Positions 1,463 through 35,791 of a stretch of DNA of 64,000 nt are shown piece after piece. Positions within the stretch are counted from its first letter, which is position 1. Each line of letters begins with the position of its first letter. The position numbers and the translations under genes were made by a program. The DNA is from Kiritimatiellia bacterium (GTDB lineage Bacteria; Verrucomicrobiota; Kiritimatiellia; UBA8416; JAWODU01): assembly GCA_046483125.1 (NCBI GenBank), contig JAWODU010000019.1:1911-65910 (forward strand), written 5' to 3'. The notes beneath the pieces are model-generated. The model searched no databases. It was not told the DNA's origin and saw nothing but the letters and a program-made list of their open reading frames with translations.

Positions 1463-1975
1463 TCAGTGCCTCCCGGGCGGTTCAGCTCTCCCCGCGCCAC
1501 GCATTTCGTTCGCAAACCGTTTCACATCCTCTTCCGTAATCGTTTCAGACTCCGTTTGCTTCCTGACGTCTTTCAGATCCACTCCCATCTCCGCCGCCAG
1601 CCTCCTTGCCGCGGGGGTAGCCCTGATTCTTTCTCTCAGGCGGGACCGTTGCCGGCGCGGTTTCCTTTCCACGGCCGCGGAACGGTGTTTTTCCATAAGT
1701 TTCCGGTTTGATCCGGAAACATCGGGCAGTTTATCGCCGAGCGGTCCGATCAACGCGACTATGTAGCCGGTCGGAACAACCGATTTTTCGGCCGCGAGAA
1801 CCGAACGGAGCACGCCGGAGCACGGCGCTTCAAGTTCAAAAGCCGCTTTCTCTGTTGTCAGCTCGGCTATGGCGTCGCCCTTGCGGACCTTTTCCCCTTC
1901 CCCGGCCAGCCATGAAGTGACCGTAACTTCGTTAACGTTCGCGCTCAGCTTCGGTATTTTCACCTTCTTTATCAT
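1463..1975 (-). CDS. Lipoyl-attachment domain plus E3-binding (PSBD) domain protein with no acyltransferase catalytic domain
   Basis: 170 aa. N-terminal lipoyl-type domain (AIAELTTEKAAFELEAPCSGVL) followed by a PSBD-like segment (ATPAARRLAAEMGVDLKDV). The start overlaps the 3' end of the upstream giant gene by 44 nt. Confidence 0.65.
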   Translation of the reverse strand: MIKKVKIPKLSANVNEVTVTSWLAGEGEKVRKGDAIAELTTEKAAFELEAPCSGVLRSVLAAEKSVVPTGYIVALIGPLGDKLPDVSGSNRKLMEKHRSAAVERKPRRQRSRLRERIRATPAARRLAAEMGVDLKDVRKQTESETITEEDVKRFANEMRGAGRAEPPGRH

Positions 1976-7895: not shown

Positions 7896-7924
7896 TCTAC
7901 TGTTACCCCTGCACTTACCCCGTC

Positions 7925-8006
7925 GTAGCTCTCTGGGCTCTTTGTGTACCCTTTCCCCCGCGTCATGCACTAAAAATCCTGTTGATCCCGCTGATCCTGC
8001 CTGAAA
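7925..8006. repeat. Partial copy of the GC-rich intergenic repeat family plus three 9-bp tandem repeats (ATCCTGTTGATCCCGCTGATCCTGCCTGAAA at 7976-8006)
   Basis: ctctgggctctttgtgtaccctttcccccgcgtc matches the element at 13921-13960. The tandem TGATCCTGT-like units are shared with 15651-15676 and 54031-54052. Confidence 0.6.
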
Positions 8007-17948: not shown

Positions 17949-18926
17949 TCATTCAAACACCGCCGTCCGCATTGAACTGTTGGAGCGGATATCACGCCTG
18001 AGAAGCCCGCTCAACTGCGAATGGATTTTCCCCGGCTGACCCGCGCCGATCGTCTCACCGTCAAATTCCTTCACCGCCACCACGTCAAGGGTCGTGCCGA
18101 CGACCAGCATTTCATCCGCTTCCTTCATGTCTTTTTTTGTGATATCCGAATATTCCGCGGCGGCAAGCCTGCCGGAACACACCAGCTCCTGCGCCAGTTC
18201 CAGTACCCTTACCATGGTTGTGCCCCTGAGAATACCGTCCAGGCGCGGGAAAAGAAGCCGTCCGTCCTTCGTGACGATGCCCATGTTCTCCGTGGCTCCC
18301 TCGGCCAGCAATCCTTCGTCGTCAAATCCGGCGGCAAAATCGGCTTCCCTTTCAAGGGCCTCTTTCTTCATCAGCACATTCGGAAGGTAATTACAGCATT
18401 TCACGCGGGCGTATTCCGGGCGCTTCACCGGTATGGAACTGGAGATAACCCGCGCCCCTTCCGGGTGTGTATTCATGAAAGGCTCTTTCAGAACGGCCGC
18501 GACCACGTACAGGCCGGTCTGCGGACAGTCCGCCGGACTCACACCAAGACTGCCCGGCCCCCGGGAAACCAGGACGCGAATAGAGCAGTTCCGTCTTCCG
18601 CCGGCACGCGCGGTTTCCAGTACCAGAGCGCCGATTTCATCCATGTTCCCGGCCGGCTCAAGGTCAAGGGCCTCCGCCGACCGGCCTAGCCTCTCCAGAT
18701 GCGCATTCATGTTGTACACCGCGCCGTTTACGCATTTCAGGCTTTCAAACACGCCGTCGCCGCGATGAACCACGTGATCGTCGAAGGGGACAGTCATCAG
18801 CACGGGATCGGTTACTATCCCGTCCCACGCGTTTGAATACATGGCCAGGTACCGGTCGTGAAAAGGCCGCCTGGCTTTTTCGGCCAGGAGAAAGAAGGAA
18901 TCGAGATCAAACCGCCTGATTTTCAA
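17949..18926 (-). CDS. Class IV (fold type IV PLP) aminotransferase, BCAT/ADC-lyase-like
   Basis: 325 aa. HRGDGVFESL and ERLGRSAEAL motifs are typical of IlvE/PabC/Dat-family enzymes. Confidence 0.75.
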   Translation of the reverse strand: MKIRRFDLDSFFLLAEKARRPFHDRYLAMYSNAWDGIVTDPVLMTVPFDDHVVHRGDGVFESLKCVNGAVYNMNAHLERLGRSAEALDLEPAGNMDEIGALVLETARAGGRRNCSIRVLVSRGPGSLGVSPADCPQTGLYVVAAVLKEPFMNTHPEGARVISSSIPVKRPEYARVKCCNYLPNVLMKKEALEREADFAAGFDDEGLLAEGATENMGIVTKDGRLLFPRLDGILRGTTMVRVLELAQELVCSGRLAAAEYSDITKKDMKEADEMLVVGTTLDVVAVKEFDGETIGAGQPGKIHSQLSGLLRRDIRSNSSMRTAVFE

Positions 18927-19797
18927 TTTTCGCTTTTGCCCTTTCCGCCGTGTACGACGCCTGCTCTTCGGAGTAGTAGGAACTCCTTATCAGGGGCCCG
19001 GACACAACAACTTCCAGTCCCTTCGCGAGCCCGGACTTTTTGAGCCCTTCGAATTCCTCCGGCGTCACGTAACGGCTCACCGGAAGGTGCAAAGCCGTCG
19101 GCTGAAGGTACTGCCCGGCGTAGAATATCCCGCATCCCGCCCCGGCCGCGTCCTCCATCAACCCGTCCACTTCCTCCATTGTTTCGCCGAGTCCCAGCAT
19201 TACAGCCGTTTTCGTAACCAGCCCGTATTCGCGTGCCGCCCTGATTACGTCAAGGGACCTGTCGTAATCCGCCTGCGGCCTTGCCGCCGGATACAGCGAA
19301 CGGACCGTTTCGAGATTGTGGCCGAACACATCCGGCTCCGCCTCGAACACCGCGCCGAGCGCTTCATCCGATCCGCGGAAATCCGGCACCAGCACTTCAA
19401 CGGTAATGTCCGGTGAAATCTCCCGGACACGCCTTATGGTTTCGGCCCATATCGCGGCCCCGCCGTCGGGCATATCGTCCCGGGTCACGGAAGTCAGGAC
19501 CACGTTTTGCAGTCCCGCTCTGCGAATCGCCTCGGCCGCCCGCCGCGGCTCGTCCGGGTCGGCCTTTTCCGGCTTTCCCGAGCCGACGCCGCAGAAGGCG
19601 CAGTTGCGGGTGCAGGTATCGCCCAGGATCATCAAAGTGGCATGGCCGTGTTCCCAGCATTCTCCGATGTTGGGGCACATCGCTTCCCGGCAGACCGTGT
19701 GCAGGCCCAGCGAATCCACGATGTTCCTGAGGCGCGAGTACTCCGGGCCCGTCGGGATCTTCGCCCTCAGCCACTCCGGCTTCTTGAGTTTCTGCAT
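18907..19797 (-). CDS. lipA: Lipoyl synthase
   Basis: 296 aa. CPNIGECW and CTRNCAFC radical-SAM and auxiliary cluster motifs, plus a conserved LipA C-terminus. Confidence 0.9.
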   Translation of the reverse strand: MQKLKKPEWLRAKIPTGPEYSRLRNIVDSLGLHTVCREAMCPNIGECWEHGHATLMILGDTCTRNCAFCGVGSGKPEKADPDEPRRAAEAIRRAGLQNVVLTSVTRDDMPDGGAAIWAETIRRVREISPDITVEVLVPDFRGSDEALGAVFEAEPDVFGHNLETVRSLYPAARPQADYDRSLDVIRAAREYGLVTKTAVMLGLGETMEEVDGLMEDAAGAGCGIFYAGQYLQPTALHLPVSRYVTPEEFEGLKKSGLAKGLEVVVSGPLIRSSYYSEEQASYTAERAKAKIENQAV

Positions 19798-19853: not shown

Positions 19854-19929
19854 TGGAGCCAGCTGTCAGATTCGAACTGACGACCTAGTGATTACAAATC
19901 ACTTGCTCTGCCGACTGAGCTAAGCTGGC
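19854..19929 (-). tRNA. tRNA-Thr (anticodon UGU), 76 nt, CCA encoded
   Basis: The reverse complement folds as a cloverleaf: acceptor GCCAGCT/AGCTGGC, D-arm GCTC..GAGC, anticodon stem AGTGA/TCACT with loop TTTGTAA, T-arm GTCAG-TTCGAAT-CTGAC, discriminator T, CCA. Confidence 0.85.
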
Positions 19930-20160
19930 CCCGGTCCAGTATCATGCCTGCACCAAAAACATAATACGCGAGCGCCCCCTGCGCAATACACAAAAGAGAG
20001 AAGGAAAAGTGCACCTGTGCGGCCGGATAAGTGTCTACAGCCGCTCGTCGACATTATTTCTCAAAAACGTTACCGTTAAACGAAATTGTACCTTGCAAAC
20101 CGGTAAGACAATGCTCTAGCATGATACATGTGAAGCGTGTGATTATCACAACAGCAGGAG

Positions 20161-20589
20161 ATGACATCCGTGTCGACTAAAGCACGTGCACCGATGGGAG
20201 TTGCCCTGGTTATTTGCGATCAGGTGATGACAGAGGCAGGCACAAACAAGAAGAGCCTGATCGGGATCTTCAACCAAATCTCTGCGAAGCAATTTCCATG
20301 TCGCCACCCTCGATTATGTATCTTTGTATCGTTAACCGGTGGTCACGGCAAAGGAAAAGCTAAGGTCCGGTGTGTCAACGAAAACAACGAAGACGAAGAA
20401 CTATTCGGCGCAGAGGGAGAAATCAACTTTCAGAGTCCCCTTCATGTAGTGGAGATAAACTTTGAGTTCAACAACGCACCTTTTCGAGCTCCCGGCAAAC
20501 ACCGAATTGACTTTTTATATGAGGGGGCCCCGGTATTGCAGAGGCCGTTTCGTGTAACGCAAACCAAAACCAGGGGGAACCAGACATGA
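20161..20589 (+). CDS. Hypothetical protein, first gene of a three-gene operon ending in a MazF-like toxin
   Basis: 142 aa with no recognisable family. The stop overlaps the next start (ATGA). Lies in lower-GC DNA. Confidence 0.4.
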   Translation: MTSVSTKARAPMGVALVICDQVMTEAGTNKKSLIGIFNQISAKQFPCRHPRLCIFVSLTGGHGKGKAKVRCVNENNEDEELFGAEGEINFQSPLHVVEINFEFNNAPFRAPGKHRIDFLYEGAPVLQRPFRVTQTKTRGNQT

Positions 20590-20810
20590 GTATCCTTGTC
20601 AAAGAAAAACCCGCTGTTCGTATCGAGGGTAGCCCACGGGATGCAGATCAAGTGTTTTTCGATGATGATTTCGCATCATCGTTCTTCGAATTCAAGATTT
20701 TTATGGCACAGGAACTCTCGGACGATGAGGTTATCAGATCTGCCGTGGAGTCCGGCGCTTACCAGTTCCTGGATTCACCAGAAGAAGACCTGTATTCCAG
20801 TACGGATTGA
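20586..20810 (+). CDS. Small acidic protein, putative antitoxin of the downstream MazF-like toxin
   Basis: 74 aa, D/E-rich. Overlaps both neighbours by 4 nt, the typical position of an antitoxin upstream of a PemK/MazF gene. Confidence 0.4.
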   Translation: MSILVKEKPAVRIEGSPRDADQVFFDDDFASSFFEFKIFMAQELSDDEVIRSAVESGAYQFLDSPEEDLYSSTD

Positions 20811-21160
20811 TAAGGATGAAGAAATGGGACGTCGTTCTTCTTTCATATCCATTCACTGACCTAACTGGTACTAAGGTGCGGCCCGCTGTAGTCCTGTCGC
20901 CTGACTCCGAAAATTCTGCGCAGGATGACGGGCTTTTCCTTTTGGTGACTTCAAACACCGCACGTATTTCAAGATATGATCTAGTGGTGGATTCAGGCCA
21001 TAAGGAATTCACTAAAACGGGCCTCAGAAAATCATCGGCCCTTAGAATTAACAAGCTGGTAACACTTAAGCAGACCCTGATCAGGAGGACGCTGGGCAAG
21101 ATTGGCCCAGAACTGCGGAAAGATATTACGTCTAGGCTTAGGGGCTACCTTGATCTCTAA
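20807..21160 (+). CDS. MazF/PemK-family type II toxin (endoribonuclease)
   Basis: 117 aa. WDVVLLSYPFTDLTGTKVRPAVVLS followed by LLVTSNT matches the PemK/MazF signature. Confidence 0.75.
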   Translation: MIRMKKWDVVLLSYPFTDLTGTKVRPAVVLSPDSENSAQDDGLFLLVTSNTARISRYDLVVDSGHKEFTKTGLRKSSALRINKLVTLKQTLIRRTLGKIGPELRKDITSRLRGYLDL

Positions 21161-21237
21161 GACAGACGTCTTACTTGAAGCGACAGCGGAAGTGGGCGGG
21201 CGGCGAGGACTACGACTAAGCCCAATTTCGTCGTTCG

Positions 21238-21492
21238 CTATCTGTAGACTTCTTTTCGATCTCCGATCGCGACCACCAAGACTACAAGCCTGTCATCATG
21301 GATTTCGTAAATCACGCGGTATGAACCGATGCGAATACGCCAAGCAGGCCGGCCCGAAAGCTTCTTGCAGCCGGGAGGGCGAGGATTCTCCGCAAGGGAT
21401 TCAATGGCTGCAATGATGCGTGCGTGGTCCTGACGGTTGATTTTCGCGAGTTGCCGTTGAGCCCGACGCAGAATATCGACTGCGTACGTCAC
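21238..21492 (-). CDS. RelE/ParE-family type II toxin
   Basis: 84 aa. LAENP..GCKKLSGRPAWRIRIGSYRVIYEIHDDRLVVLVVAIGDRKEVY is a canonical RelE/ParE core. Confidence 0.85.
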   Translation of the reverse strand: MTYAVDILRRAQRQLAKINRQDHARIIAAIESLAENPRPPGCKKLSGRPAWRIRIGSYRVIYEIHDDRLVVLVVAIGDRKEVYR

Positions 21493-21695
21493 GTATCATA
21501 TCCCTCTCGAATCTCTCGCACGGCTTGCTCGAAAGGGATGGCGTCCTGAGGGCCGGCTTTCGCCTTGTCGTAGGTTCTGATATCGTCGAGTTCCTCGAGA
21601 TCCTCGACAACGCGTTGCCACTCGGAAACAGGAAGGATGACAGATTTGGGGTTCTGTTTTTCGTCAACCACGTATTCTGGATGGACTTTAATCAT
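21489..21695 (-). CDS. Phd/YefM-type antitoxin paired with the RelE-like toxin
   Basis: 68 aa. Overlaps the toxin start by 4 nt and carries a GGAGGAAATAAT RBS. The acidic C-terminus is typical of these antitoxins. Confidence 0.65.
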   Translation of the reverse strand: MIKVHPEYVVDEKQNPKSVILPVSEWQRVVEDLEELDDIRTYDKAKAGPQDAIPFEQAVREIREGYDT

Positions 21696-21749
21696 ATTAT
21701 TTCCTCCAACTGACAGGCTTCTCGATCTTGCAGATCAATTCTTTTCGCT

Positions 21750-21942
21750 TCATGCGATTTGAAGCTCCGCCACCTTGCGGACACCAGGGATGTGCCCGCC
21801 TGTGAGGTCGTCATAAAGATCCTTAAGATTTTCCTGAAGGTTCCTCAAGGGTTTCTCCTTGAGTCATGTAATCGGGATAATCCTCCAGATATCCCAACCA
21901 CATATTTTCATATTGCCAGTGGACATATCGTATTGTTTTCAT
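21750..21942 (-). pseudogene. HicB-like (HicB_lk_antitox-type) antitoxin gene with an apparent +1 frameshift
   Basis: Frame A gives MKTIRYVHWQYENMWLGYLEDYPDYMTQGETLEEPSGKS*. Shifting one nucleotide at about 21835 continues the family-conserved ...TLEELQENLKDLYDDLTGGHIPGVRKVAELQIA*. This is consistent with an extra C in a CC run. Confidence 0.5.
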
Positions 21943-22009
21943 GTTATTAATATACACCTTGTTTGGATTTTTAGCAATCTTCTCTTTTGACACAACGCAA
22001 TCGGGGGAT

Positions 22010-22204
22010 TCATACCCGGCGTAGGCCGCATCTGCCATACCCGCCGGTCTGCCCCAGCTGCCTCCAGCCACTGACCCGGTACGCCGTGCCTCGAAAAAAC
22101 TGCCCGTCAACAAAGCTCTCGGCCACCAGGATCGGATGTTTATACCGCTGTTGCCAGTCGTTACTCAGACGCTGCAGGCACAACTTCATCGTCCGGCTGG
22201 CCAA
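22010..22204 (-). mobile_element. Possible IS/transposase-associated remnant (DUF4338-like C-terminal fragment)
   Basis: The 64-aa ORF VAESFVDGQFFRGTAYRVSGWRQLGQTGGYGR resembles the conserved C-terminus of IS-associated proteins. No intact transposase or terminal inverted repeats were recognised. Confidence 0.25.
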
Positions 22205-22390
22205 GTTCGCATAGTGACAGTCCGGCAGGAGCTTATGTGTTTTTTAAGGGACGCTGACCCCGTGGCCCCGTCGCTGATTTGTCTTCTTCGCAAGGCAGAA
22301 TAATGCTTAAATACTAATTCAAGGGTTGGCCCCACGGTCCACCACGGTCCATCTTAAAACGAGCATTTCCTTCCGTTTGTCCAAGTAAGT

Positions 22391-23908
22391 TCAGCGGATA
22401 ACACGCCGGTCGGAGATTTTCAGCAATTCTTCGGCCATGGCGTCCGAGCGCGCCACCCGCGGCACCTTGTGCTGGCCGCCCAGCTTGCCTTTTTCCTTCA
22501 TCCACTCGTAAAACGTGCCGGGAGACACCGTTATCATGACCGGCGGCCTGAGCCCGTAATCGCCGCGGCGATGGGTGTCGTAGTCCTCGCTCCGCGCGCG
22601 GATTTCGGAGTCCACGGTTTTCATGAATTCGCTTTCGTTTCCGGGCGGCGAGTCGAATTCAAATATCCACCTGTGAACCGGAACGGGTTCTTCAACAGAA
22701 GGATAACGCGGCCACACGGTGTAGTCGCTGAGAACCGCCCCGGTTTTTTCGCAGGCTTTTCCCACGGCTTTTTCCATCATCTCAAGGGTCACGTGTTCTC
22801 CGAAAGCGCTCAAGCCGATCCTGGTGCGCCCCGCGAATCTCACCCGCGGCGGCTGTACGCTTTCGAAACGTATCACGTCGCCAAGAGGATAGGCCCAGAT
22901 GCCGCCGTTTGTGGAAACGACTAAAGCGTAGTCCCTGCCCGTTTCCACCTCGCCGAAATGCAGGCGCGGCGCTTTCGCGTCTCCGGCCCGCTCCGCGGGA
23001 ATGAATTCGTAGTAGACACCGTTGTCCACGAGCATCCGCAACGGCCCGCCCGGTTCTTCCTGTATGGCCGTCATTCCCGCTTCGGAGGATGAATACGTGT
23101 CCATGTAAGCTATTCGGCGGCCTATGTATTCTTCAAAGGACTTCCCATAGGGTTCAAAGGCCATGCCGTATGACACGAAACACGCAAAGTCCGGCCACAG
23201 GGTCCCCGCGTTGCCGCCTCCCGAAGCAATCATTTCCTTAAACAGAAGCGCCGCCCAGGAAGGACAGGCGGACAGCACGCGGACCCTGGAGGTCAGGTAA
23301 CGTTCCACGATCATACGAATCTTCCGCTCCCAGTCGGCAACACACGCTATGTCCGCCTCCGGCAGATACCTGCCGTGCGCGTAAAACGGTATGTGTCTGC
23401 CCATTATTCCGGAGGCGTCGCCGTAGAGGCTTCTGCCCCGTTTCCTCAGGGAAGTCGAACCGCCGAGGTAAAAGAATTTCCCGTCCAGAATCGTCTCCGC
23501 GCCGACCCGCCGCGCCATAAAGGCGAGAAGCGCCGCGCCGGACCTCTTGTTGGAAGCGATGGCTTCTCTGGTAACAGGCAGGAGCTTGTTGCCGGCGGTA
23601 GTGCCCGAAGAAAGGGCAAAATAGCGGACGTGTCCCGGCCAGGTCACGTCGCGGGCGCCTTCAAACGCCTCGTGCCATTCGGGGGAGGCGGTTTCGTAGT
23701 CGGCAAGGGGCACGGCCGAGCGGTATTCTTCGGGGGTACGGATCTTCGAAAAACCGTGTTTACGGCCCAGGCGCGTAGCAGCCGCGCGCCCAAGCAGGCC
23801 GCGCAGAAGACGCGACTGGGAAGCGGCCGGATCGCGGCCGGATTCTTCCAGCTGTGCCGTGCGGCGCCGTATTGCCGCCTCTACCGCCAGTACCGCGAGT
23901 TTTTTCAC
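22391..23908 (-). CDS. GH3-family acyl-acid amido synthetase (adenylate-forming)
   Basis: 505 aa. SSGTTAGNKLLPVT AMP-binding motif and overall GH3-like architecture. Confidence 0.8.
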   Translation of the reverse strand: MKKLAVLAVEAAIRRRTAQLEESGRDPAASQSRLLRGLLGRAAATRLGRKHGFSKIRTPEEYRSAVPLADYETASPEWHEAFEGARDVTWPGHVRYFALSSGTTAGNKLLPVTREAIASNKRSGAALLAFMARRVGAETILDGKFFYLGGSTSLRKRGRSLYGDASGIMGRHIPFYAHGRYLPEADIACVADWERKIRMIVERYLTSRVRVLSACPSWAALLFKEMIASGGGNAGTLWPDFACFVSYGMAFEPYGKSFEEYIGRRIAYMDTYSSSEAGMTAIQEEPGGPLRMLVDNGVYYEFIPAERAGDAKAPRLHFGEVETGRDYALVVSTNGGIWAYPLGDVIRFESVQPPRVRFAGRTRIGLSAFGEHVTLEMMEKAVGKACEKTGAVLSDYTVWPRYPSVEEPVPVHRWIFEFDSPPGNESEFMKTVDSEIRARSEDYDTHRRGDYGLRPPVMITVSPGTFYEWMKEKGKLGGQHKVPRVARSDAMAEELLKISDRRVIR

Positions 23909-26725: not shown

Positions 26726-27313
26726 CTACCAGCCGCCTCTTACTATGGGAAGCATTCGCCAGTGATACCGGTCGGTTATCACATTGGCCAGGCCGATTTG
26801 AAATCCTTTCAGGTAGCCGGTTATATTAACTACCCCGATCTGGGTCCCGGTTACCCGCCAGGCGTAATTGTATCCTCCAATCTGGAAACCTCTCAGCGTA
26901 TCGCACAGGTTGAGCAAGCCGATCTGGCAACCCATGATTTCCATGCCCATGGTGTTGAGCAGGCCTATCTGGGCGCCCTTGGCGTCATACTCCACAGCGT
27001 TCCACGGGGATATGGTCATGCCCCGCATTCCGTCCCGACAGCTGTTCATCAGGACACCTATACCTAAACCTTCGAAGTATCCTTCCGCACGATTGACAAA
27101 CCCTAAATCCAGGCCTCTTACGTTGCGGTTGCGGGAGTAAGGCAGGCTCAGACGCAGGCCTTCTATCGAGGCGTACTCATTGACTATTTGTCTCTTGGGA
27201 CTCAAGGATATCTGGAAATGCCCGATTTCCTCCTTGTCCTGCGCCCGGCCCGCGGCCGGGATCAGAAACATGATACTCGCGAGAAAAAGAATAAAACGGG
27301 ATGGTTTCATCAT
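26726..27313 (-). CDS. Secreted protein with about 7 tandem G-x-Q-I-G-L-x-N type repeats
   Basis: 195 aa. Signal peptide MMKPSRFILFLASIMFLIPAAGRAQ. Repeats include GAQIGLLN, GCQIGLLN, GFQIGGYN, GTQIGVVN and GFQIGLAN. Confidence 0.6.
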   Translation of the reverse strand: MMKPSRFILFLASIMFLIPAAGRAQDKEEIGHFQISLSPKRQIVNEYASIEGLRLSLPYSRNRNVRGLDLGFVNRAEGYFEGLGIGVLMNSCRDGMRGMTISPWNAVEYDAKGAQIGLLNTMGMEIMGCQIGLLNLCDTLRGFQIGGYNYAWRVTGTQIGVVNITGYLKGFQIGLANVITDRYHWRMLPIVRGGW

Positions 27314-28586: not shown

Positions 28587-29636
28587 ATGCCGAACGCACC
28601 GACAACAAAAATAATCGCCACACTGGGGCCGGCCAGCGATACATACGGCGTAATTCGCCGCATGGTCAGACAGGGCCTCGACATTGTCCGTCTTAACTTT
28701 TCCCACGGCAGTCACGCCTCGCATCTGCGTCTTCTTCAGACCGTCCGGAAAATCAACGCTAAATACCGCCGCCGCGTAAAAATAATGCAGGATCTCGAAG
28801 GCTTCCGCATACGCGTGGGACGGATTGAAAGCGAGGAGGGAATGGAACTGGCCAAGGGCAGGCGGATTGTCCTTAACAGGTCCGCGAAGGCATCAGGGGC
28901 TTCAACCGTACCCTTCGATTATTCAGGCGACCTGAACCGGATACCGAAAGGACAGCTTATATTCATAGACGACGGCAACCTGGTCCTGAGAGCCGATTCC
29001 AGAACCGCTCATACCGTGAGAACCACCGTTATCGAAGGCGGAAGGCTCTTCAGCCGCAAAGGGGTGAACATGCCCGGCGTAAAGCTGGACTTCCCGGTGC
29101 CCACGGAAAAGGACCGCGAGGACATCGAATTCGGAGTTGAGCACGAAGTTGATTTCATCGCGCTTTCCTTTGTGCGGACCGGCGCGGACGTGGCGGCCGT
29201 ACGCGACTTGGTGAAAAAACGTCATCCCGACTGCGGCATAATAGCCAAGATAGAATCGCGTGACGCCGTCAGAAACCTGGAATCTATCATAAAAGCGTCC
29301 GACGGCATTATGATCGCCCGGGGAGACATGGGCATAGCCATGCCCGTCTACAAGGTGCCCATGATTCAGAAGGACATTATCCGCAGATGCAATGAGTGCG
29401 GTAAACTCGTGATAACCGCCACTCAGATGCTCGAGAGCATGGCCCGGAGGAAACGCCCCAGCCGCGCGGAAGCGGCCGACGTGGCAAACGCGGTTCTGGA
29501 CGGCACCGACTGCGCCATGCTTTCGGGTGAAACGGCTTCGGGCAAATACCCTGTGGAATCGGTGAAAATGATGAACGATATCATAAAATACACGGAATCG
29601 CGGAGGTCTTCGGCCGGTGAAGGATACCGGAGATAA
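28587..29636 (+). CDS. pyk: Pyruvate kinase, short form lacking the C-terminal domain
   Basis: TKIIATLGP, the NFSHG motif, MIARGDLG-like MIARGDMG and TQMLESM. The protein ends after the A domain (about 350 aa). Confidence 0.8.
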   Translation: MPNAPTTKIIATLGPASDTYGVIRRMVRQGLDIVRLNFSHGSHASHLRLLQTVRKINAKYRRRVKIMQDLEGFRIRVGRIESEEGMELAKGRRIVLNRSAKASGASTVPFDYSGDLNRIPKGQLIFIDDGNLVLRADSRTAHTVRTTVIEGGRLFSRKGVNMPGVKLDFPVPTEKDREDIEFGVEHEVDFIALSFVRTGADVAAVRDLVKKRHPDCGIIAKIESRDAVRNLESIIKASDGIMIARGDMGIAMPVYKVPMIQKDIIRRCNECGKLVITATQMLESMARRKRPSRAEAADVANAVLDGTDCAMLSGETASGKYPVESVKMMNDIIKYTESRRSSAGEGYRR

Positions 29637-30549
29637 GAAACCGTCCACCAAGCGCTTCAGGCGCGCGGCGCTCGCGCTTATCGCCGCGGCGGTAATTGCC
29701 GCCTGCTGGTTCGGGGGGCCCGCCGGTATCCTGCTCAGGAAAATCCTTTCCGGATATCTGCCTTACGAAACCCGTGAAGTAACCGTCACAGCCATCAGGC
29801 GCCGGAAAGCGTCCGAAAGCCTCAAAAGGGGCCTGTCTCTCCGGATAGAGCCTGAGCGGCTTATGGAAATAATCACCGCCGCGTATCCGGCCGCGGCGGC
29901 TCTGCCCCGGAAACTGGTCGAAAAAGGACTGTGCGTCGACGGTTACTGGCGGCCCGGGGAGTTCTCCCTGCCCGGAGGCGAATCGATACCGCTGAAACTC
30001 ATCCTGGAAGACACCCGTAACGGACCGGTGCTCGAAGGCAGGCTTCCGGTTGAGGAGGTCAACAGATCGCTGGAAACGGAACTTGTCGAGAAACTGAGGC
30101 GGAAGAAGAAATGGTTTCTTGGACATTATGAAGTAGTTTATGAGCCCGAATTCGTAACGTTCGCGCTGAGGTCACAGTCCGGTCCAGTTCTTACTCCCGT
30201 CACGAGCCGTAAATTCTTTTTCGAGGCCTCCGGACGCGTGAAAATATGGTTTGAGGACAGCCTGATTGCCGCCCGCAAAACCGCCGACGTAAAGAACCTC
30301 TTCGGGACAATAAACGTGAAAGTCGTCCGCGAAGACTCCCGGACGCGTCTTTCGTACGAAGCAGTCGTCGACATTCTGGAAGCCGATCTGCACGACACGC
30401 CGCCGTGGCTGGAAAGAGACCTGATTGACGACCTTCGGGAATCCCTGGAAAAATCACTGAACCGCGACAAGAACAGGAAACGCGTGGAAAGTCTCCCGAT
30501 TCCGGAATGGGCGCCCATGGATCTCGCAGTGAATCTAAGATTCGACTGA
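29617..30549 (+). CDS. Membrane-anchored hypothetical protein
   Basis: 310 aa with one N-terminal TM helix (AALALIAAAVIAACWF) and no recognisable family. Confidence 0.45.
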   Translation: MKDTGDKKPSTKRFRRAALALIAAAVIAACWFGGPAGILLRKILSGYLPYETREVTVTAIRRRKASESLKRGLSLRIEPERLMEIITAAYPAAAALPRKLVEKGLCVDGYWRPGEFSLPGGESIPLKLILEDTRNGPVLEGRLPVEEVNRSLETELVEKLRRKKKWFLGHYEVVYEPEFVTFALRSQSGPVLTPVTSRKFFFEASGRVKIWFEDSLIAARKTADVKNLFGTINVKVVREDSRTRLSYEAVVDILEADLHDTPPWLERDLIDDLRESLEKSLNRDKNRKRVESLPIPEWAPMDLAVNLRFD

Positions 30550-33500
30550 ACCATCTGCGGCGAGATACACGGTGATCTCGCTGACGTCGCCTTCGCGGAT
30601 GCGGCGGGCAAGCGGGTCATCGACGGAGCATCCGCTTGCCTCCGCTGAACCGCCGTCTTCGAACCGGAGCACGTAACGCGCGGGAGAGACCCCGTCTTCG
30701 CCGAAGGTGTTCTTCTTCCCGGGGTTCACGTAAACCACCAGGGTCCTGTTGAAAAGCACGAAGGCGTAGTGATCGGCGGGCAGAACGGATTCTCTTGTTT
30801 CTCCATCCCTGAGCCAGTTGACCTTCCGTTCCGCGCGGGCGAACAGCCACGCGGGCAGTACGGGCCGGAGACGGAAACGAAGGCGGCCCCCGCCGTCCGT
30901 CTCAAAAGGCGCGTTGCCGCAGTTGGCGTGTATCCACATGTCGTGAAACTCCGCAGTGGCCCCGCTGAGACGCGCATAGAAACCCCGGCCGTGCCACTCC
31001 CGGCACGGATGCGCGGAAGTGACCAGGAAGGAGGAATTCTCCAGGACCGAGCGGCCGTAGCGTTCCGGGGGCTGGAAGGGAATGAGGGCTTTTCGCATGT
31101 CCCGCCAGAACTCGGAATGCAGTCCGGATTTCAGGACCTCCAGCAGGAACTTGTACTCCATGTGCAGCCATATGGACGCGTTTTCGAGATACCCCGGCGG
31201 CCAGGCGCATGCCGCTCCCATCTGTTCGTAAACTCTGCCGAGGGGCTCGCTGACCCGGTACATTTCAAGCTCGGTATCGTAAAGCGGGGAGTTGCGCACC
31301 GCCAGATACTGGCTCCGGGCTTCATCCTCATCCCGGGAGGACCTGAGGTAATGCATCGGCCCTTCCAGAAAGTCCGTCAGGCCGTGCTGTTCAAATCGTC
31401 CGGGCACCACCACGACGCGGCCGTCTTTTTTCACGGTCTCGTACTCGACAAGCCGGTGATAGAAGTAGCTCGTAATAAGACCGGTTTTCCCGTCAATGGC
31501 GCGTTCAATGCCGCTGTCCAGTTTTTCGCGGCACGCCTTCAGAAAAGCCGCGGCCGCGTTCGCCCCAAGTGTCTTTTCCTCCCCGTCTATGCCGTCACGT
31601 GTTGAAGCACGGAAGGTTTCCTTGGCGGTGTTCGTGCGGTCCCAGTATTCAAACAGCGAATCCGGATCGTCGCCCGCCGTATCCCGGAGCGCCGCGCTCA
31701 CCGCGTCCACGAGGTCCGCGACTTCCCCGGGCAGTCGTATTTCAGCCGACCCGGCGTCCGGGAGGACGTCCGTCAACAGGTCCACAAGCCTTCGAAGCTC
31801 TATAGTTTCGTTTATGCTGGACCCGAAGTGGCGGGACATATCGTGCAGAGCGTCGTTCCAGTTGGCTTTTCCCGCTTCGAATTCAATGCCCATTCCGAAG
31901 GGATCCAGCGTGGCCATTTTCACCGGCACCAGCGCGAAGAGCCTCTCGAACAGAGACGTTTCGTAGACTTCTCCGGCGCCGCGGCCGATCCTTACTCCCT
32001 GGACCGGAAGCGGCAGAGGCGGCCAGGGCTCGCGGTTCGTATCCAGGAAATTCTTTTGTACCGGTATGCCGTCTTCAATCACTACGCGTTCTGAACGCGG
32101 TCTGACAAACGCTTCGCCGCGGCAGAAACGGTAAGTCCTGTCGTCGAAGAAAAGTTCTTTCCTGCAGTCGGGATAGAGGGAGAGAAAGCTGTCTATGAAA
32201 TCCAGGTTGTAGTGGAAATGGTCCGTCCAGAAACCGCTGATGGTGTCGGCTTTGTGCACGGCAAAGCTTTTCGCCATTACCCGGCCGAGAAATTCCAGCG
32301 GCTGTACGGCGGTTTTAATTCTGTTTTCGGCAACGGCCGTAAGAAGCCCTCCCGGGGTGAATTCTCTTTTCAGTATCTCCGTCAACACGGCCGTACCTTC
32401 ACCTCCCGCCCCGGCTTCGGCAGCGGCTTCGCCCGGAACGACGCCCTCTTCAAGCCTGAACACAGTTCCGAAAAGGTAATGCGGATTGTAACCGTCCAGG
32501 AAAATCATATCTGTATAGGTCCGGATATTGCTCTCGAGGACGTCGGGGTTCACGTAAATGGCGTTGCGCTGGTTCTGCGCTATATCCCGGTACCCGCCGT
32601 TGCCCTGGGACCAGAAACACGGTTCCACTTCGAAATGATTGTAGTCGCGCTCAAGGTCCCCGTGAATTCTGGAATAGACGTAAAAGACCCGTTTGCGGCC
32701 CGAAGCATCCGGAAGGTTAACCGGCAATCCGCCCCGCAGTACGTTATCCAGAAAAGTCGCCCGGCAGTAGTTGTCGTACGTAACGTCCGCGGAGAAAACG
32801 GCGCAGGGATTGGTAATCTCACTGATCAGGCGGCGGTTTTCCTCCCGCTTCTGCTTAAACCAGCCCGGGGTACACGCGGAGGCGGAGATACTCTCCAGTT
32901 TTGCCCGCCCGTTGACGTGCCCGTAAAGCGCGTGAATTGCGACGGTTTCGCCGGGGGGGATTTCCACGGATTTTGCCATCATCGCGGTGAAGAGAAGCCC
33001 TTCGCAAAGCTGGCCGCGCGGCACACTGAAAGGCGCGTCGAGAAAAGCGCGGGGAAGGTCAAGGCCGGTGTCCGGCCCGAACACGCATGCGGGATCCACA
33101 ATCGGCGGCATCAGCCCCTCTTCGTCACAGTGAAGGGCGAAATGTCCGCCGCCTTCCGCGCCCTGCGCCGACAGTTTGCGGGTCTGGAAGACGGGCGCGC
33201 GGTTTTCCAGGTTGGCCGCCACCGCCGTGCCCGAACGCGTGTTCATCATGTGCTTGATGTCCATGTGGTCAAGGCCGAACGGCAGGACCCTTGGAAGACC
33301 GTCGATCCATTCAATTGAGACTGTTTCACTGCCGGTATTGGTGACGCTGACGCGGCGGGCAAGAGCAGGGTACAGTTCCCGCGGGACAGTCATGAAGGTA
33401 ACGTTGACTTCAACGTTGAGACGCGGGTTTATTTCTTTCAGGTTCAGCTCGGCAGGATTAAAGGAAAGAGTAGATACACAGCCGTACTCGCGGGGACCCC

Positions 33501-33792
33501 TTCCGGGCCGGAACGGTTCGTAATACTGCCCCGCGACTTTCAGGAACGTGCGGAAACCGCCCAGGGGCGTCAACCGGTAAGCGTCCACCGCCGGTGAAAA
33601 ATCCAGCATGGCTCCGGACTTGTTGCGCACGCCGAATGAACTCACGCACTGTCCGCGGTTGACGAAGAAACACCAGAGCGGCACGCCGTCCAGGCCGGCC
33701 ACTCCCGGAAAGAAATTCGCGAAAGGCGCGGCGTTGTTGTAGTTCTCGATGGTTGTGGAACCATCTTCGGAGATATCATAGCTCACTTTCAA
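30535..33792 (-). CDS. Large (1085 aa) uncharacterised protein, possibly (alpha/alpha)6-barrel glycoside hydrolase/phosphorylase-like
   Basis: Long ORF with a soluble composition and weak resemblance to toroid glycosidase/phosphorylase families. Last gene of a co-directional array. Confidence 0.5.
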   Translation of the reverse strand: MKVSYDISEDGSTTIENYNNAAPFANFFPGVAGLDGVPLWCFFVNRGQCVSSFGVRNKSGAMLDFSPAVDAYRLTPLGGFRTFLKVAGQYYEPFRPGRGPREYGCVSTLSFNPAELNLKEINPRLNVEVNVTFMTVPRELYPALARRVSVTNTGSETVSIEWIDGLPRVLPFGLDHMDIKHMMNTRSGTAVAANLENRAPVFQTRKLSAQGAEGGGHFALHCDEEGLMPPIVDPACVFGPDTGLDLPRAFLDAPFSVPRGQLCEGLLFTAMMAKSVEIPPGETVAIHALYGHVNGRAKLESISASACTPGWFKQKREENRRLISEITNPCAVFSADVTYDNYCRATFLDNVLRGGLPVNLPDASGRKRVFYVYSRIHGDLERDYNHFEVEPCFWSQGNGGYRDIAQNQRNAIYVNPDVLESNIRTYTDMIFLDGYNPHYLFGTVFRLEEGVVPGEAAAEAGAGGEGTAVLTEILKREFTPGGLLTAVAENRIKTAVQPLEFLGRVMAKSFAVHKADTISGFWTDHFHYNLDFIDSFLSLYPDCRKELFFDDRTYRFCRGEAFVRPRSERVVIEDGIPVQKNFLDTNREPWPPLPLPVQGVRIGRGAGEVYETSLFERLFALVPVKMATLDPFGMGIEFEAGKANWNDALHDMSRHFGSSINETIELRRLVDLLTDVLPDAGSAEIRLPGEVADLVDAVSAALRDTAGDDPDSLFEYWDRTNTAKETFRASTRDGIDGEEKTLGANAAAAFLKACREKLDSGIERAIDGKTGLITSYFYHRLVEYETVKKDGRVVVVPGRFEQHGLTDFLEGPMHYLRSSRDEDEARSQYLAVRNSPLYDTELEMYRVSEPLGRVYEQMGAACAWPPGYLENASIWLHMEYKFLLEVLKSGLHSEFWRDMRKALIPFQPPERYGRSVLENSSFLVTSAHPCREWHGRGFYARLSGATAEFHDMWIHANCGNAPFETDGGGRLRFRLRPVLPAWLFARAERKVNWLRDGETRESVLPADHYAFVLFNRTLVVYVNPGKKNTFGEDGVSPARYVLRFEDGGSAEASGCSVDDPLARRIREGDVSEITVYLAADGSVES

Positions 33793-33810
33793 GGGTACGA
33801 TGCTTTCCTG

Positions 33811-34326
33811 TTACCTGATCTCGCGGCCCGGCTTTTCGATACGCGACTCTATCACGGGAAGAACGTCGTACATGCGTATCAGCATCTGCTCTTCGGTTGC
33901 GTCGGGCGAAACCACGAATATAACATTGCCCCGGACGAAGTACCTTAACCCCGCCATTTCCGTAACGACATCAAGAGTTTCTCCCAGCTTCAGTCCCCTG
34001 GCCCTGAGGGTGAGCGCGGGCAGGGTGATTTTTTCTCCGGCGCGCGGTTTCAGGGCCAGCACTATGTTGACGCCCTTCATATTTCCCGCGCCGGGATCGA
34101 GGTCCGCGCTTTTTGCCGTGAGAAAATCAAGGATATCCCGAACATCCGCCTGCCTGAAATCGATCTTCGGTATGGTTATATTTTCAAGTTTCCAGTTTGT
34201 GAGCCGGGTTCTTGCGGCTTCGCTGTTTTCACCCTCGCCGCACATGCCGGAAAGAGCGGAAGCGCATAGAACAAGAACAAATAAACCGCAAAACGGAAAA
34301 CGGTCACTGGATCTAAATAAACTCAT
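33811..34326 (-). CDS. Small secreted protein or lipoprotein with a single secretin-N/STN-like domain
   Basis: 171 aa. The signal peptide is followed by IDFRQADVRDILDFLTAKSADLD...NIVLAL...ITL...LGLRYFVRGNVIFV, which fits the secretin N-domain pattern. Confidence 0.5.
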   Translation of the reverse strand: MSLFRSSDRFPFCGLFVLVLCASALSGMCGEGENSEAARTRLTNWKLENITIPKIDFRQADVRDILDFLTAKSADLDPGAGNMKGVNIVLALKPRAGEKITLPALTLRARGLKLGETLDVVTEMAGLRYFVRGNVIFVVSPDATEEQMLIRMYDVLPVIESRIEKPGREIR

Positions 34327-34327
34327 C

Positions 34328-35791
34328 CTATTTGCCGGGGTCCCACCTGCCTACGAGCTTCTCGAAGGCAGGGCCGGGAAAGTTCTCCTTGAAAATCCTG
34401 TAATACCACATTTCCTTCGGAGAATTGAGCCTGTAACCGCCTTCCGTGTTCCGGCTCTCTTCCGTGAATGCGTCCTTTTCGAGCTTCCTGCCGGCTATTT
34501 CGTCCATCAGGTCGTCCGTTCCCGTACCGGCGGAAAATCTCAGTTTGACCCTCCTGTATATTCTGTCGGGCAGAAGGTCTCTGAAAGCTTCGCGAAGTAT
34601 CCATTTTTCCACGAGCGTACCGTTCCCGGACGGATGAATTTTCCATTGCACAGGCGCTGAGTCCGCGAAAGCTATCACGTGCGGATCGATGAAAGGAGTC
34701 CTGTAATTTATGCCGTTACCCATCATCGCCCTGTCTAGCCGCTGTACGGCAGTGTTGTAAGCTATGGCCACGAGCTTGTGCATCATATGCAGGCGGTCGA
34801 GATCCGTGGGCAGTTCCTTCAGAAGATGATATCCTCCGAAAAGCTCGTCTCCCCCTTCCCCGCTCAAGATGCAGTTTGTGAATCCGCTTGCCAGCCTGGA
34901 AGCGAACAGATTTGATATCGCCCCGCTGACGCAATCCTCGTCGAATGATTCCAGGATCCGGACCGCTTCCGGCACCATTGTCTCTATTTCCGAAGCGTCG
35001 AAAATGTGGACCTCGTGTTTCATGTTAAGGTGTTTAGCCATCAGTTCCGCGTTCTCCAGGTCCTGCGCCCCTTCCACCCCAACGGTCACCGCGGGCACTT
35101 CCGCTCCAATCTCTCTTGCCGCGGCGGCTATTACCGAACTGTCCAGGCCGCCGCTCAGAAGGCAGGCGCCGACGGCCCCGTCCTCTATGCGGCGTTTCAC
35201 CGATTCGCTGAGAATTACGCGCAGTTTTTCAGCGGCTTCCCCCGCTTCGGCCGGCATGGTTATGTCCGGCTGGCGCGCCACGTACCCGCCGGTTCCGTGC
35301 CTCGCCGAATACGTAGTTGAAGGATGCATTTCCCACACGTCCTCAACCAGCCCGGACAGCGCCTTCATTTCGGAAGCGAAACACAGCGCGCCGTTCTTAG
35401 CCGTTCCAGCGTACAGGGGACGCACACCGACGGGATCCCTGGCAAGAACCACGTCTTTGCCGTCGTAAACCGCGCTGGCGAATACCCCCTCCAGATAGGC
35501 GGGAAAAGCCAGTCCGTGTTTCTCAAACTCATCCATCACAACATCCGCGTCGGACTGTCCCCGCGGCCGGTCGTTGTAAATTTCCCCATCCAGCAAAACA
35601 GCAATGTTGTCCTTTTGGGTAAACCCGTTCCCCCGCGCCGGAGAAAGACGCCCGGCGCAGACACCCAGGGCCGCCTGTTCGTACTGCCTGATTTCACGGC
35701 TGTCGGCTCCCCGGTGCCGCATGGTTTCGATCATACCGGCTGCACGTTCTTTATCGCTTCCCGCCCCGAACATTCCCGCTATTCCCGCCAT
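34328..35791 (-). CDS. Asparagine-synthase-family amidotransferase homologue lacking the N-terminal Cys nucleophile
   Basis: 487 aa. Starts MAGIAG rather than MCGI. SGGLDSS PP-loop ATP pyrophosphatase motif. Its stop overlaps the downstream start by 1 nt. Confidence 0.8.
   Translation of the reverse strand: MAGIAGMFGAGSDKERAAGMIETMRHRGADSREIRQYEQAALGVCAGRLSPARGNGFTQKDNIAVLLDGEIYNDRPRGQSDADVVMDEFEKHGLAFPAYLEGVFASAVYDGKDVVLARDPVGVRPLYAGTAKNGALCFASEMKALSGLVEDVWEMHPSTTYSARHGTGGYVARQPDITMPAEAGEAAEKLRVILSESVKRRIEDGAVGACLLSGGLDSSVIAAAAREIGAEVPAVTVGVEGAQDLENAELMAKHLNMKHEVHIFDASEIETMVPEAVRILESFDEDCVSGAISNLFASRLASGFTNCILSGEGGDELFGGYHLLKELPTDLDRLHMMHKLVAIAYNTAVQRLDRAMMGNGINYRTPFIDPHVIAFADSAPVQWKIHPSGNGTLVEKWILREAFRDLLPDRIYRRVKLRFSAGTGTDDLMDEIAGRKLEKDAFTEESRNTEGGYRLNSPKEMWYYRIFKENFPGPAFEKLVGRWDPGK

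Follow-up and report, generated by a model that had tools for sequence, protein, structure and literature searches.

How did a short, AT-rich stretch crowded with toxin–antitoxin (TA) genes come to lie between a tRNA gene and a GH3-family gene in a Kiritimatiellia genome: as the residue of one integrative element that entered at the tRNA, or as the product of several small insertions? The stretch, hereafter the islet, occupies positions 19930-22390 of the window, the 64,000 nucleotides (nt) of contig JAWODU010000019.1 (assembly GCA_046483125.1) that were analysed, and coordinates without a locus name refer to this window. An earlier note on the same DNA had read the islet as a decayed mobile-element remnant turned into a TA islet. 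Our analysis points to a small mosaic of type II TA cassettes, gained by horizontal transfer and accumulated serially in a variable gap between tRNA-Thr/lipA and the GH3 gene, a reading to which we assign a probability of about 0.75. One of the cassettes, a three-gene operon encoding a DUF6941 protein, a small acidic protein and a MazF/PemK toxin, is probably an undescribed three-component MazF-type system. The islet carries the following features, with bit scores given against the profile cut-off where one applies.

20161-20589, plus strand: DUF6941 protein of 142 amino acids (aa), first gene of cassette 1 (PF22091, 83.8 bits)
20586-20810, plus strand: acidic protein of 74 aa, isoelectric point (pI) 4.1, presumed antitoxin of cassette 1 (no family match; orthologues in every cassette)
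20816-21160, plus strand: MazF/PemK-fold toxin of cassette 1, 114 aa, pI 10.1 (PF02452, 36.6 bits against 23.1)
21238-21492, minus strand: ParE/RelE-superfamily toxin of cassette 2, 84 aa (PF05016, 54.6 bits against 23; PHROG RelE-like, E 5.7e-24)
21489-21695, minus strand: RelB-like/Phd-type antitoxin of cassette 2, 68 aa (PF18506, 30.5 bits against 27)
21697-21753, minus strand: hicA remnant, its ATG overlapping the hicB stop as in viral contig L176
21750-21942, minus strand: hicB-like antitoxin pseudogene, a 63-codon frame split by one extra base near 21840
22013-22243, minus strand: DUF4338/DruA-like fragment of about 77 aa (PF14236, E 1.6e-5, 24.7 bits against 27)

The earlier note had counted three TA modules here, namely a MazF/PemK-like three-gene operon, a RelE-Phd pair and a frameshifted HicB-like gene. 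Two of these were indeed intact, the PF02452 gene being preceded by the 74-aa open reading frame (ORF) and DUF6941, and the PF05016 toxin being paired with a RelB-like antitoxin. The third, hicBA, is dead, the frameshift seen in the note being a 1-nt insertion in hicB. The note had not recognised the three-gene PemK operon as a conserved unit, and had overlooked the hicA remnant.

The compositional anomaly of the islet is real and strong, as the visible AT-richness reported earlier had led one to expect. Its GC content was 0.497 (49.7%), compared with a mean of 0.573 (standard deviation 0.013, minimum 0.544) in equal-length segments elsewhere in the window (n = 567), and the two 1-kb bins within 20001-22000 had the lowest GC of all 64 bins (0.477 and 0.491). 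A codon-usage profile, proposed in the earlier note as a check, gave the same picture: GC content at third codon positions (GC3) was 0.48-0.57 in the five intact islet genes versus 0.64-0.75 in ten flanking host genes, and spanned 0.41-0.57 over the TA genes. The cassettes also differed among themselves, with GC contents of 0.47-0.49 for the PemK operon, 0.51-0.55 for the relBE pair, and 0.39 and 0.52 for the two hicB halves. The DruA-like fragment at the right-hand end was host-like (GC 0.60, GC3 0.73).

A trace of how the islet was put together lies at the junction between cassette 2 and the hicBA remains. Cassette 2 is, by its predicted products, a canonical, textbook relBE/parDE-type pair in antitoxin-then-toxin order, with the antitoxin stop overlapping the toxin start by 4 nt. 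Two further profiles fell below their cut-offs (PhdYeFM, 16.4 versus 29.8 bits; TIGR02385 RelE_StbE, 25.6 versus 27.9), and a ribosome-dependent RNase (RelE) and a gyrase poison (ParE) are indistinguishable for this toxin from sequence alone. Next to it, the hicB-like product is spread over two frames, MKTIRYVHWQYENMWLGYLEDYPDYMTQGETLEE and LQENLKDLYDDLTGGHIPGVRKVAELQIA, with the extra base between them. Once repaired, the 63-aa product resembled UPF0150 only below threshold (16.7 bits versus 27.3). It was assigned as HicB-like because viral contig L176 (IMGVR_UViG_2841135142_000001) encodes, at 1501-1692, a 63-aa homologue with an unbroken frame (51% identity over the full length), which is followed there, after a 4-nt overlap, by a 58-aa HicA (PF07927, 45.5 bits). 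The same viral contig carries, beside its intact hicBA, a 255-aa ORF on the opposite strand (2062-2829) that looks transposase-like by eye.

No intact HicA partner was found in the islet, where 12 N-terminal codons remain, MKRKELICKIEK (21718-21753), of which 7/12 are identical and 11/12 similar to the L176 HicA. Beyond these codons the frame no longer resembles HicA and terminates within the ribosome-binding site that precedes the RelB-like (phd) gene, hence hicA reads as truncated after codon 12, where it meets the relBE cassette. This truncation speaks directly for separate arrival, or rearrangement, of the cassettes.

At the other end of the islet, the DruA-like fragment aligned to positions 140-225 of the 297-position DruA (formerly DUF4338) profile. 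Its best annotated relative was an "ISAs1 family transposase" on a Thiodictyon plasmid, 48% identical over 63 residues (113-175), whose domains run in the order DruA-like, DDE_Tnp_1_assoc, DDE_Tnp_1. No DDE transposase domain was matched in the window and a repeat search returned no convincing terminal inverted repeats. The fragment probably marks a former insertion sequence, as the earlier note had proposed in calling it a possible insertion-sequence remnant; with a sub-threshold PF14236 match and the 48% identity to a transposase, that suggestion is reasonable and unproven. The ISAs1-annotated relative itself (locus L166, 2165-3499, plasmid pTs417 of Ca. Thiodictyon syntrophicum) opens with a Druantia DruA/DUF4338-like domain (E 8.7e-26), and this fusion of a defence-system domain to a transposase may deserve a look of its own.

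Adjacency to a tRNA gene raises the question of tRNA-targeted integration, for which two features at the islet borders are relevant.

19854-19929, minus strand: tRNA-Thr with anticodon TGT (ARAGORN; Rfam RF00005, 71 bits), the left landmark
22332-22351, plus strand: tandem duplication of the 10-mer CCACGGTCCA, considered trivial

The tRNA was the sole hit of the Rfam scan. As it lies on the minus strand and ends at 19929, the islet does abut its 5' end, as described earlier, whereas tRNA-targeting integrases duplicate the 3' part of a tRNA. The absence of an integrase also held: the ORFs scanned in the 8-36 kb interval, a set without the overlapping and antisense ORFs, yielded no integrase or recombinase domain, and four of them had no Pfam match of any kind (26726-27313, 29617-30549, 30535-33792 and 33800-34660). 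The direct repeats noticed near 22320 proved to be the doubled CCACGGTCCA. An attachment-site repeat matching the tRNA end, which the earlier note had wanted sought, did not materialise, as no exact match of at least 12 nt to the tRNA ±30 nt exists within the window. A gapped 13-nt likeness does connect the borders, between TGGCCC–CGGTCCA (19926-19938, straddling the tRNA 5' end) and TGGCCCCACGGTCCA (22327-22341), but its local alignment score was reached by 6.4% of random window pairs (p about 0.06). A repeat finder, an exact k-mer search and local alignment of both boundaries thus returned no significant attachment site.

These observations bear on the view that the whole segment is the eroded remnant of one integrative element, an island or prophage at tRNA-Thr, that lost its integrase and left its TA genes behind. 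Adjacency to the tRNA, foreign composition, the fragment of a transposase-associated domain at the far end and the gapped likeness between the boundaries would all be expected of such an element, yet the missing integrase and tRNA-derived repeat, a border likeness of a kind that chance supplies, and a position 5' of the tRNA all speak against it. So do the uneven GC of the cassettes and the truncation of hicA by relBE, which indicate separate events, and the occurrence of cassette 1 elsewhere as a free-standing unit without island context. We therefore consider a single eroded element unlikely. For the same reasons (no tRNA repeat, a weak border likeness, the 5' side, differing cassette GC and a hicA cut by relBE) we favour successive small insertions. 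Of the earlier picture of a decayed mobile-element remnant, the TA islet and its decay stand, the latter visible in the hicB frameshift, the hicA truncation and the transposase-associated fragment, while the notion of a single element attached at the tRNA does not.

Cassette 1 is the part of the mosaic that merits further attention. Its genes are tightly packed, with the DUF6941 stop and the start of the 74-aa ORF sharing a 4-nt ATGA overlap and 5 nt separating that ORF from the PemK gene. The PF02452 match of the toxin spans profile positions 1-106 of 109, and a PemK profile matched solved MazF chains, the best being M. tuberculosis MazF6 (E 4.6e-8). The AlphaFold2 (AF2) model of the toxin (mean predicted local distance difference test score, pLDDT, 93.6) has the MazF/CcdB-type SH3-like barrel fold, and a Foldseek search aligned it to MazF-mt3, MazF-mt1 and the B. 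subtilis and S. aureus MazF with template-modelling (TM) scores of 0.82-0.84 (0.84 to MazF-mt3) and root-mean-square deviations of 1.6-2.9 A. Residues R22, T45 and S46 align with RRP and ITSNT of MazF6, that is, with the MazF "RP" and "TS" motifs; R22 and T45 were invariant in an alignment of 32 sequences, S46 only among the eight cassette sequences. A catalytic role for the active-site Arg (K-x-R-P) and Thr/Ser (T-S) is established in published work on MazF.

The 74-aa protein, acidic and fast-evolving, is the presumed antitoxin. It carries an N-terminal motif M-x-T-x-x-x-E-x-P-A and a C-terminal motif F-x-F-L-D-x-x-E-E-D-x-Y. Neither the protein nor a profile of eight orthologues found a match in Pfam, NCBIfam, PDB sequences or PADLOC, and the same searches revealed no recognisable AbrB/SpoVT-type or ribbon-helix-helix (RHH) DNA-binding domain. 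PADLOC matched no islet protein.

A perfect palindrome, TGTGATTATCACA, lies at 20138-20150, 10 nt 5' of the DUF6941 start codon, and a similar one, TGTGAAATTCACA, lies about 39 nt 5' of the DUF6941 start in L091. These hint at a putative operator, a weak lead given that only two loci share the feature.

Does the toxin travel with both of its partners, or is DUF6941 an independent upstream gene beside an ordinary two-gene mazEF with a divergent MazE? We approached this from either end of the operon, and the two resulting sets of loci are samples rather than a census. A DUF6941 homologue profile was used to fetch 80 metagenome loci, and in 11 of these (L086-L094, L096 and L097) a PemK gene, 33-62% identical by tblastn, lay directly downstream of DUF6941. 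A homologue of the 74-aa protein (34-50% identical) was detected in 10 of the 11, the remaining locus (L094) having a 70-aa ORF in that place. From the toxin side, all seven PemK homologues looked up (46-57% identity) were preceded by DUF6941 and an unannotated small ORF. Protein lengths in these seven cassettes were 132-139 aa for DUF6941, 76-88 aa for the small ORF and 114-129 aa for PemK, and in the other cassettes the small gene and the toxin either overlapped by 4-11 nt or were separated by up to about 15 nt.

The order of the trio was thus kept in at least 18 loci with unrelated neighbours. Surrounding the seven toxin-side cassettes were, respectively, type I restriction-modification (R-M) and DUF4268 genes; ParB/MauE/rhodanese; IS66/HsdM/helix-turn-helix (HTH)-peptidase M78/PIN; unannotated/Laminin_G; apiosidase/MOSC; purM/greA; and fabH/plsX/rpmF. 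Across 15 cassettes, mean pairwise identity was 52% (DUF6941), 39% (small protein) and 53% (PemK), and the pairwise identities of the three proteins correlated (r = 0.78-0.87). In the same set, pI was about 6-9 for DUF6941, 4.1-4.6 for the small protein and 9-10 for PemK. In a neighbour-joining tree, the TA-linked DUF6941 copies formed one long-branched clade apart from a short-branched clade of ACT-linked copies. Because gene order is conserved while neighbours differ, divergence is correlated and the TA-linked copies form a single clade, the trio appears to move and diverge as one unit.

Some of the fetched loci have defence-island-like surroundings. In L092 an MmeI-type R-M enzyme adjoins the cassette (3834-6614), and in L167 (1-2160) and L170 (1-2145 and 4569-5703) cassette copies lie near type I R-M subunits, an IS66 transposase, an HTH-peptidase M78 gene and a PIN gene. 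In scans of IMG/VR, neither the PemK nor the DUF6941 profile produced a confirmed match.

An independent DUF6941 would account for the 69 of the 80 metagenome loci in which it has no adjacent PemK, for the size of the family and for the failure of DUF6941 to match any TA or defence component known. It would leave unexplained why DUF6941 precedes 7/7 PemK genes found from the toxin side, in seven distinct gene contexts and either with 4 nt of overlap or only a few nt apart, why it has diverged in step with the two genes behind it, and why its TA-linked copies are one clade. Furthermore, several other cassettes have, in place of a palindrome, a clear promoter-like TTGACA -35 box upstream of DUF6941 and not upstream of the small gene. 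We consider a plain two-gene module quite improbable, and one MazF/PemK subfamily appears to be obligately three-gene, with an antitoxin that lacks a DNA-binding domain.

The DUF6941 family as a whole is large: clustered at 50% identity it comes to about 4000 clusters, and 4014 representatives were matched at E <= 1e-3, nearly all of them stand-alone proteins of 130-150 aa. The 69 remaining metagenome loci form a tight, mostly Verrucomicrobia-like clade in which DUF6941 follows an ACT-pair gene near cysNC, without PemK. In about 50 of the 80 loci, DUF6941 comes directly after, and often overlaps, a 156-aa gene encoding an ACT-domain pair (PF19571), with a cysN/cysC-type gene on the upstream side and a ubiE-type methyltransferase gene on the downstream side (for example L100 22-884, L102, L103, L113 and L121). 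This context is conserved and apparently housekeeping, unlike the TA cassette.

Relatives of DUF6941 also occur in phages. The AF2 model of the islet protein is a ten-strand all-beta sandwich (pLDDT 91), and two phage proteins of equal size, A0A2H4JCJ7 and A0A2P1JU14 (Anoxybacillus phage A403), resemble it closely in structure (TM 0.76-0.80). A family member, gp49c (Pfam E 2.9e-11), lies downstream of cI in the immunity operon of the temperate Pseudomonas phage MR13.

L183 3983-4402, equivalent to MT104473.1 29435-29854 (MR13): gp49c, DUF6941 member; the same in phage MR15

The cI repressor operon of temperate phages is the usual place of exclusion and defence genes expressed in the lysogen. 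By sequence, the islet DUF6941 found no phage protein at E <= 1e-3; a weak match at E = 2e-3 was confirmed by Pfam as DUF6941. A plasmid search gave no match for DUF6941 or the HicB-like protein. There was no mention of DUF6941/PF22091 in the literature searched, the searched literature on tripartite or three-component TA systems does not describe a DUF6941 cassette, and PADLOC has no model for DUF6941. A catalytic Cys/His pair was considered for the domain and dropped, since some TA-linked copies do not retain C47 and H49.

Taken together, the following course and mechanism can be proposed. The cassettes would have entered the gap one after another, the relBE cassette cutting hicA after codon 12 when it joined it, with no integrase-mediated, tRNA-targeted integration involved. 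The toxin of cassette 1 is predicted to cleave RNA. The acidic protein would be its labile antitoxin, whose C-terminal F-x-F-L-D-x-x-EED-x-Y segment would occupy the RNA-binding groove of the MazF dimer and so block the toxin. With no DNA-binding domain recognisable in this antitoxin, DUF6941 would supply a third function, most likely as a regulator or as a sensor/adaptor of the antitoxin–toxin pair. A regulator is favoured by its place as first gene, as in omega-epsilon-zeta and paaR2-paaA2-parE2; a sensor/adaptor fits as well, since DUF6941 is more conserved than the antitoxin and has phage relatives. The evidence fits either role, and we infer it purely from context and conservation. The fuller proposal that DUF6941–acidic protein–MazF is an undescribed three-component TA/abortive-infection system, in which DUF6941 as sensor or regulator times the release of MazF and maybe reads a phage or cellular cue, is accordingly a tentative one. 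Intact cassettes would persist as their loss releases the stable toxin (addiction), and they may also act in abortive phage defence.

The flanks show where the host chromosome gives way to the gap.

18907-19797, minus strand: lipA (lipoyl synthase), left flank, final gene of a block syntenic with other Kiritimatiellia
19930-20160, no strand: AT-rich intergenic region (GC 0.476), probably with promoters diverging towards the tRNA and the DUF6941 operon
22391-23908, minus strand: GH3-family gene (PF03321, PF23571 and PF23572; GC3 0.71), right flank, of host composition

To the left of the islet lie purL, thiE, a BFN/UVR nuclease gene, a Na/H exchanger gene, PTS-EIIA, a class IV aminotransferase gene and lipA, and the order purL-thiE-BFN-EIIA-aminotransferase-lipA is kept in three other Kiritimatiellia/Lentisphaerae-type contigs. 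Synteny with these relatives ends exactly upstream of lipA, where their contigs carry lipB or a TPR gene instead of a tRNA. Beyond a 100% identical protein from a Kiritimatiellia MAG, the nearest relative of lipA was 64% identical and the others lower, exact-protein look-ups with lipA and DUF6941 returned no match, and the GH3 protein found only Bacteroidota-type relatives in the genome collection (29-36% identity). Further afield, the window contains three very long minus-strand ORFs (1932-7970, 2012 aa; 56127-61511, 1794 aa; 30535-33792, 1085 aa), the last with no Pfam match at E <= 1e-3.

Could the region be native and old, and AT-rich only in the way that short TA genes and intergenic DNA are everywhere? 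The DruA-like fragment is already at a host GC3 of 0.73, the 230 bp adjoining the tRNA (19930-20160) could be a native promoter region and not insert, and an empty site for comparison is lacking. The five intact genes, in contrast, fall well outside the GC3 range of the host, no other 2.46-kb stretch of the window drops below 0.544 GC, the three-gene cassette recurs in unrelated neighbourhoods of other organisms, and the junction is not conserved among relatives. Long residence without acquisition is therefore quite unlikely.

Several points nevertheless weigh against reading the islet as an acquired mosaic with a three-component cassette. No close relative is at hand to show an empty site, hence "acquired" follows from composition and from the mobility of the cassette elsewhere, and TA genes are frequently AT-richer than their hosts even as old residents. 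The contig comes from a metagenome-assembled genome (MAG), so the hicB frameshift could be an assembly error and continuity at the islet edges is presumed. As to cassette 1, most of the DUF6941 family is not TA-linked. The fold matches of DUF6941 in PDB are weak, generic immunoglobulin-like sandwiches (TM about 0.4-0.5), and sequence and fold searches with it gave no RHH, HTH or other DNA-binding signature and no chaperone/SecB match. Toxicity, neutralisation and expression of the islet proteins are predictions. That the MAG contig is simply chimeric at the tRNA, the islet being from another organism, is barely credible: tRNA genes and mobile cassettes are common points of assembly mis-joins, but both flanks share GC and GC3, the islet is internal with host-like sequence on either side within 2.5 kb, and the DruA-like fragment on its right has host composition.

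As a whole the acquired mosaic is ordinary, since variable gaps in chromosomes often hold small TA clusters; it adds a clean example of cassette overwriting, in which an incoming relBE appears to have cut hicA. It resembles tRNA-associated genomic islands in its tRNA adjacency, foreign composition and TA cargo, and differs from them in lacking an integrase and a significant tRNA-end repeat, in lying on the 5' side and in being only 2.4 kb long. The DruA-like fragment aligns, as described, to the profile of Druantia DruA and to the N-terminal domain of the Thiodictyon ISAs1 transposase, but it is a fragment below the Pfam cut-off, without DruB-E genes or a DDE domain, and its neighbours are TA genes and GH3. 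Cassette 2 agrees with relBE/parDE/phd-doc systems in its antitoxin-then-toxin order, its overlapping stop and start, and two proteins that both score above Pfam thresholds. The hicBA remains keep the gene order and 4-nt overlap of the L176 hicAB, and depart from a working hicAB in the frameshifted hicB, with its sub-threshold UPF0150 match, and in a hicA of 12 recognisable codons.

Cassette 1 is closest to mazEF/pemIK (kis-kid), with which it shares a MazF-fold toxin above the Pfam PemK threshold, an acidic small protein directly upstream and tight coupling. It differs in that its antitoxin has neither an AbrB/SpoVT nor an RHH domain and no detectable similarity to MazE/PemI, and in that the operon is headed by a third gene, DUF6941, in all sampled toxin-side cassettes. 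Three co-transcribed genes with a middle or short protein lacking a DNA-binding domain are also found in omega-epsilon-zeta, paaR2-paaA2-parE2, pasABC and the HigB-HigA-SecB toxin–antitoxin–chaperone ("TAC") systems, and the first two share the order of extra component, antitoxin and toxin. The DUF6941 beta sandwich, however, is unlike omega (RHH), PaaR (HTH), PasC and SecB, and the toxin family (MazF) differs too. Where TAC systems have a SecB-like chaperone as the third gene, cassette 1 has DUF6941, and its first gene is no RHH or HTH repressor of the omega/PaaR kind, even if the sandwich could still bind DNA. It does behave as three-component systems generally do, in that the trio is conserved as a mobile unit (11 DUF6941-side loci and 7/7 PemK-side). 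The likeness to the known three-component systems is one of logic only and not of protein families. If DUF6941 does regulate or trigger the toxin, cassette 1 would represent a new architecture for MazF systems and give a widespread domain its first function, and it might link the cassette to the DUF6941 genes in phage immunity regions.

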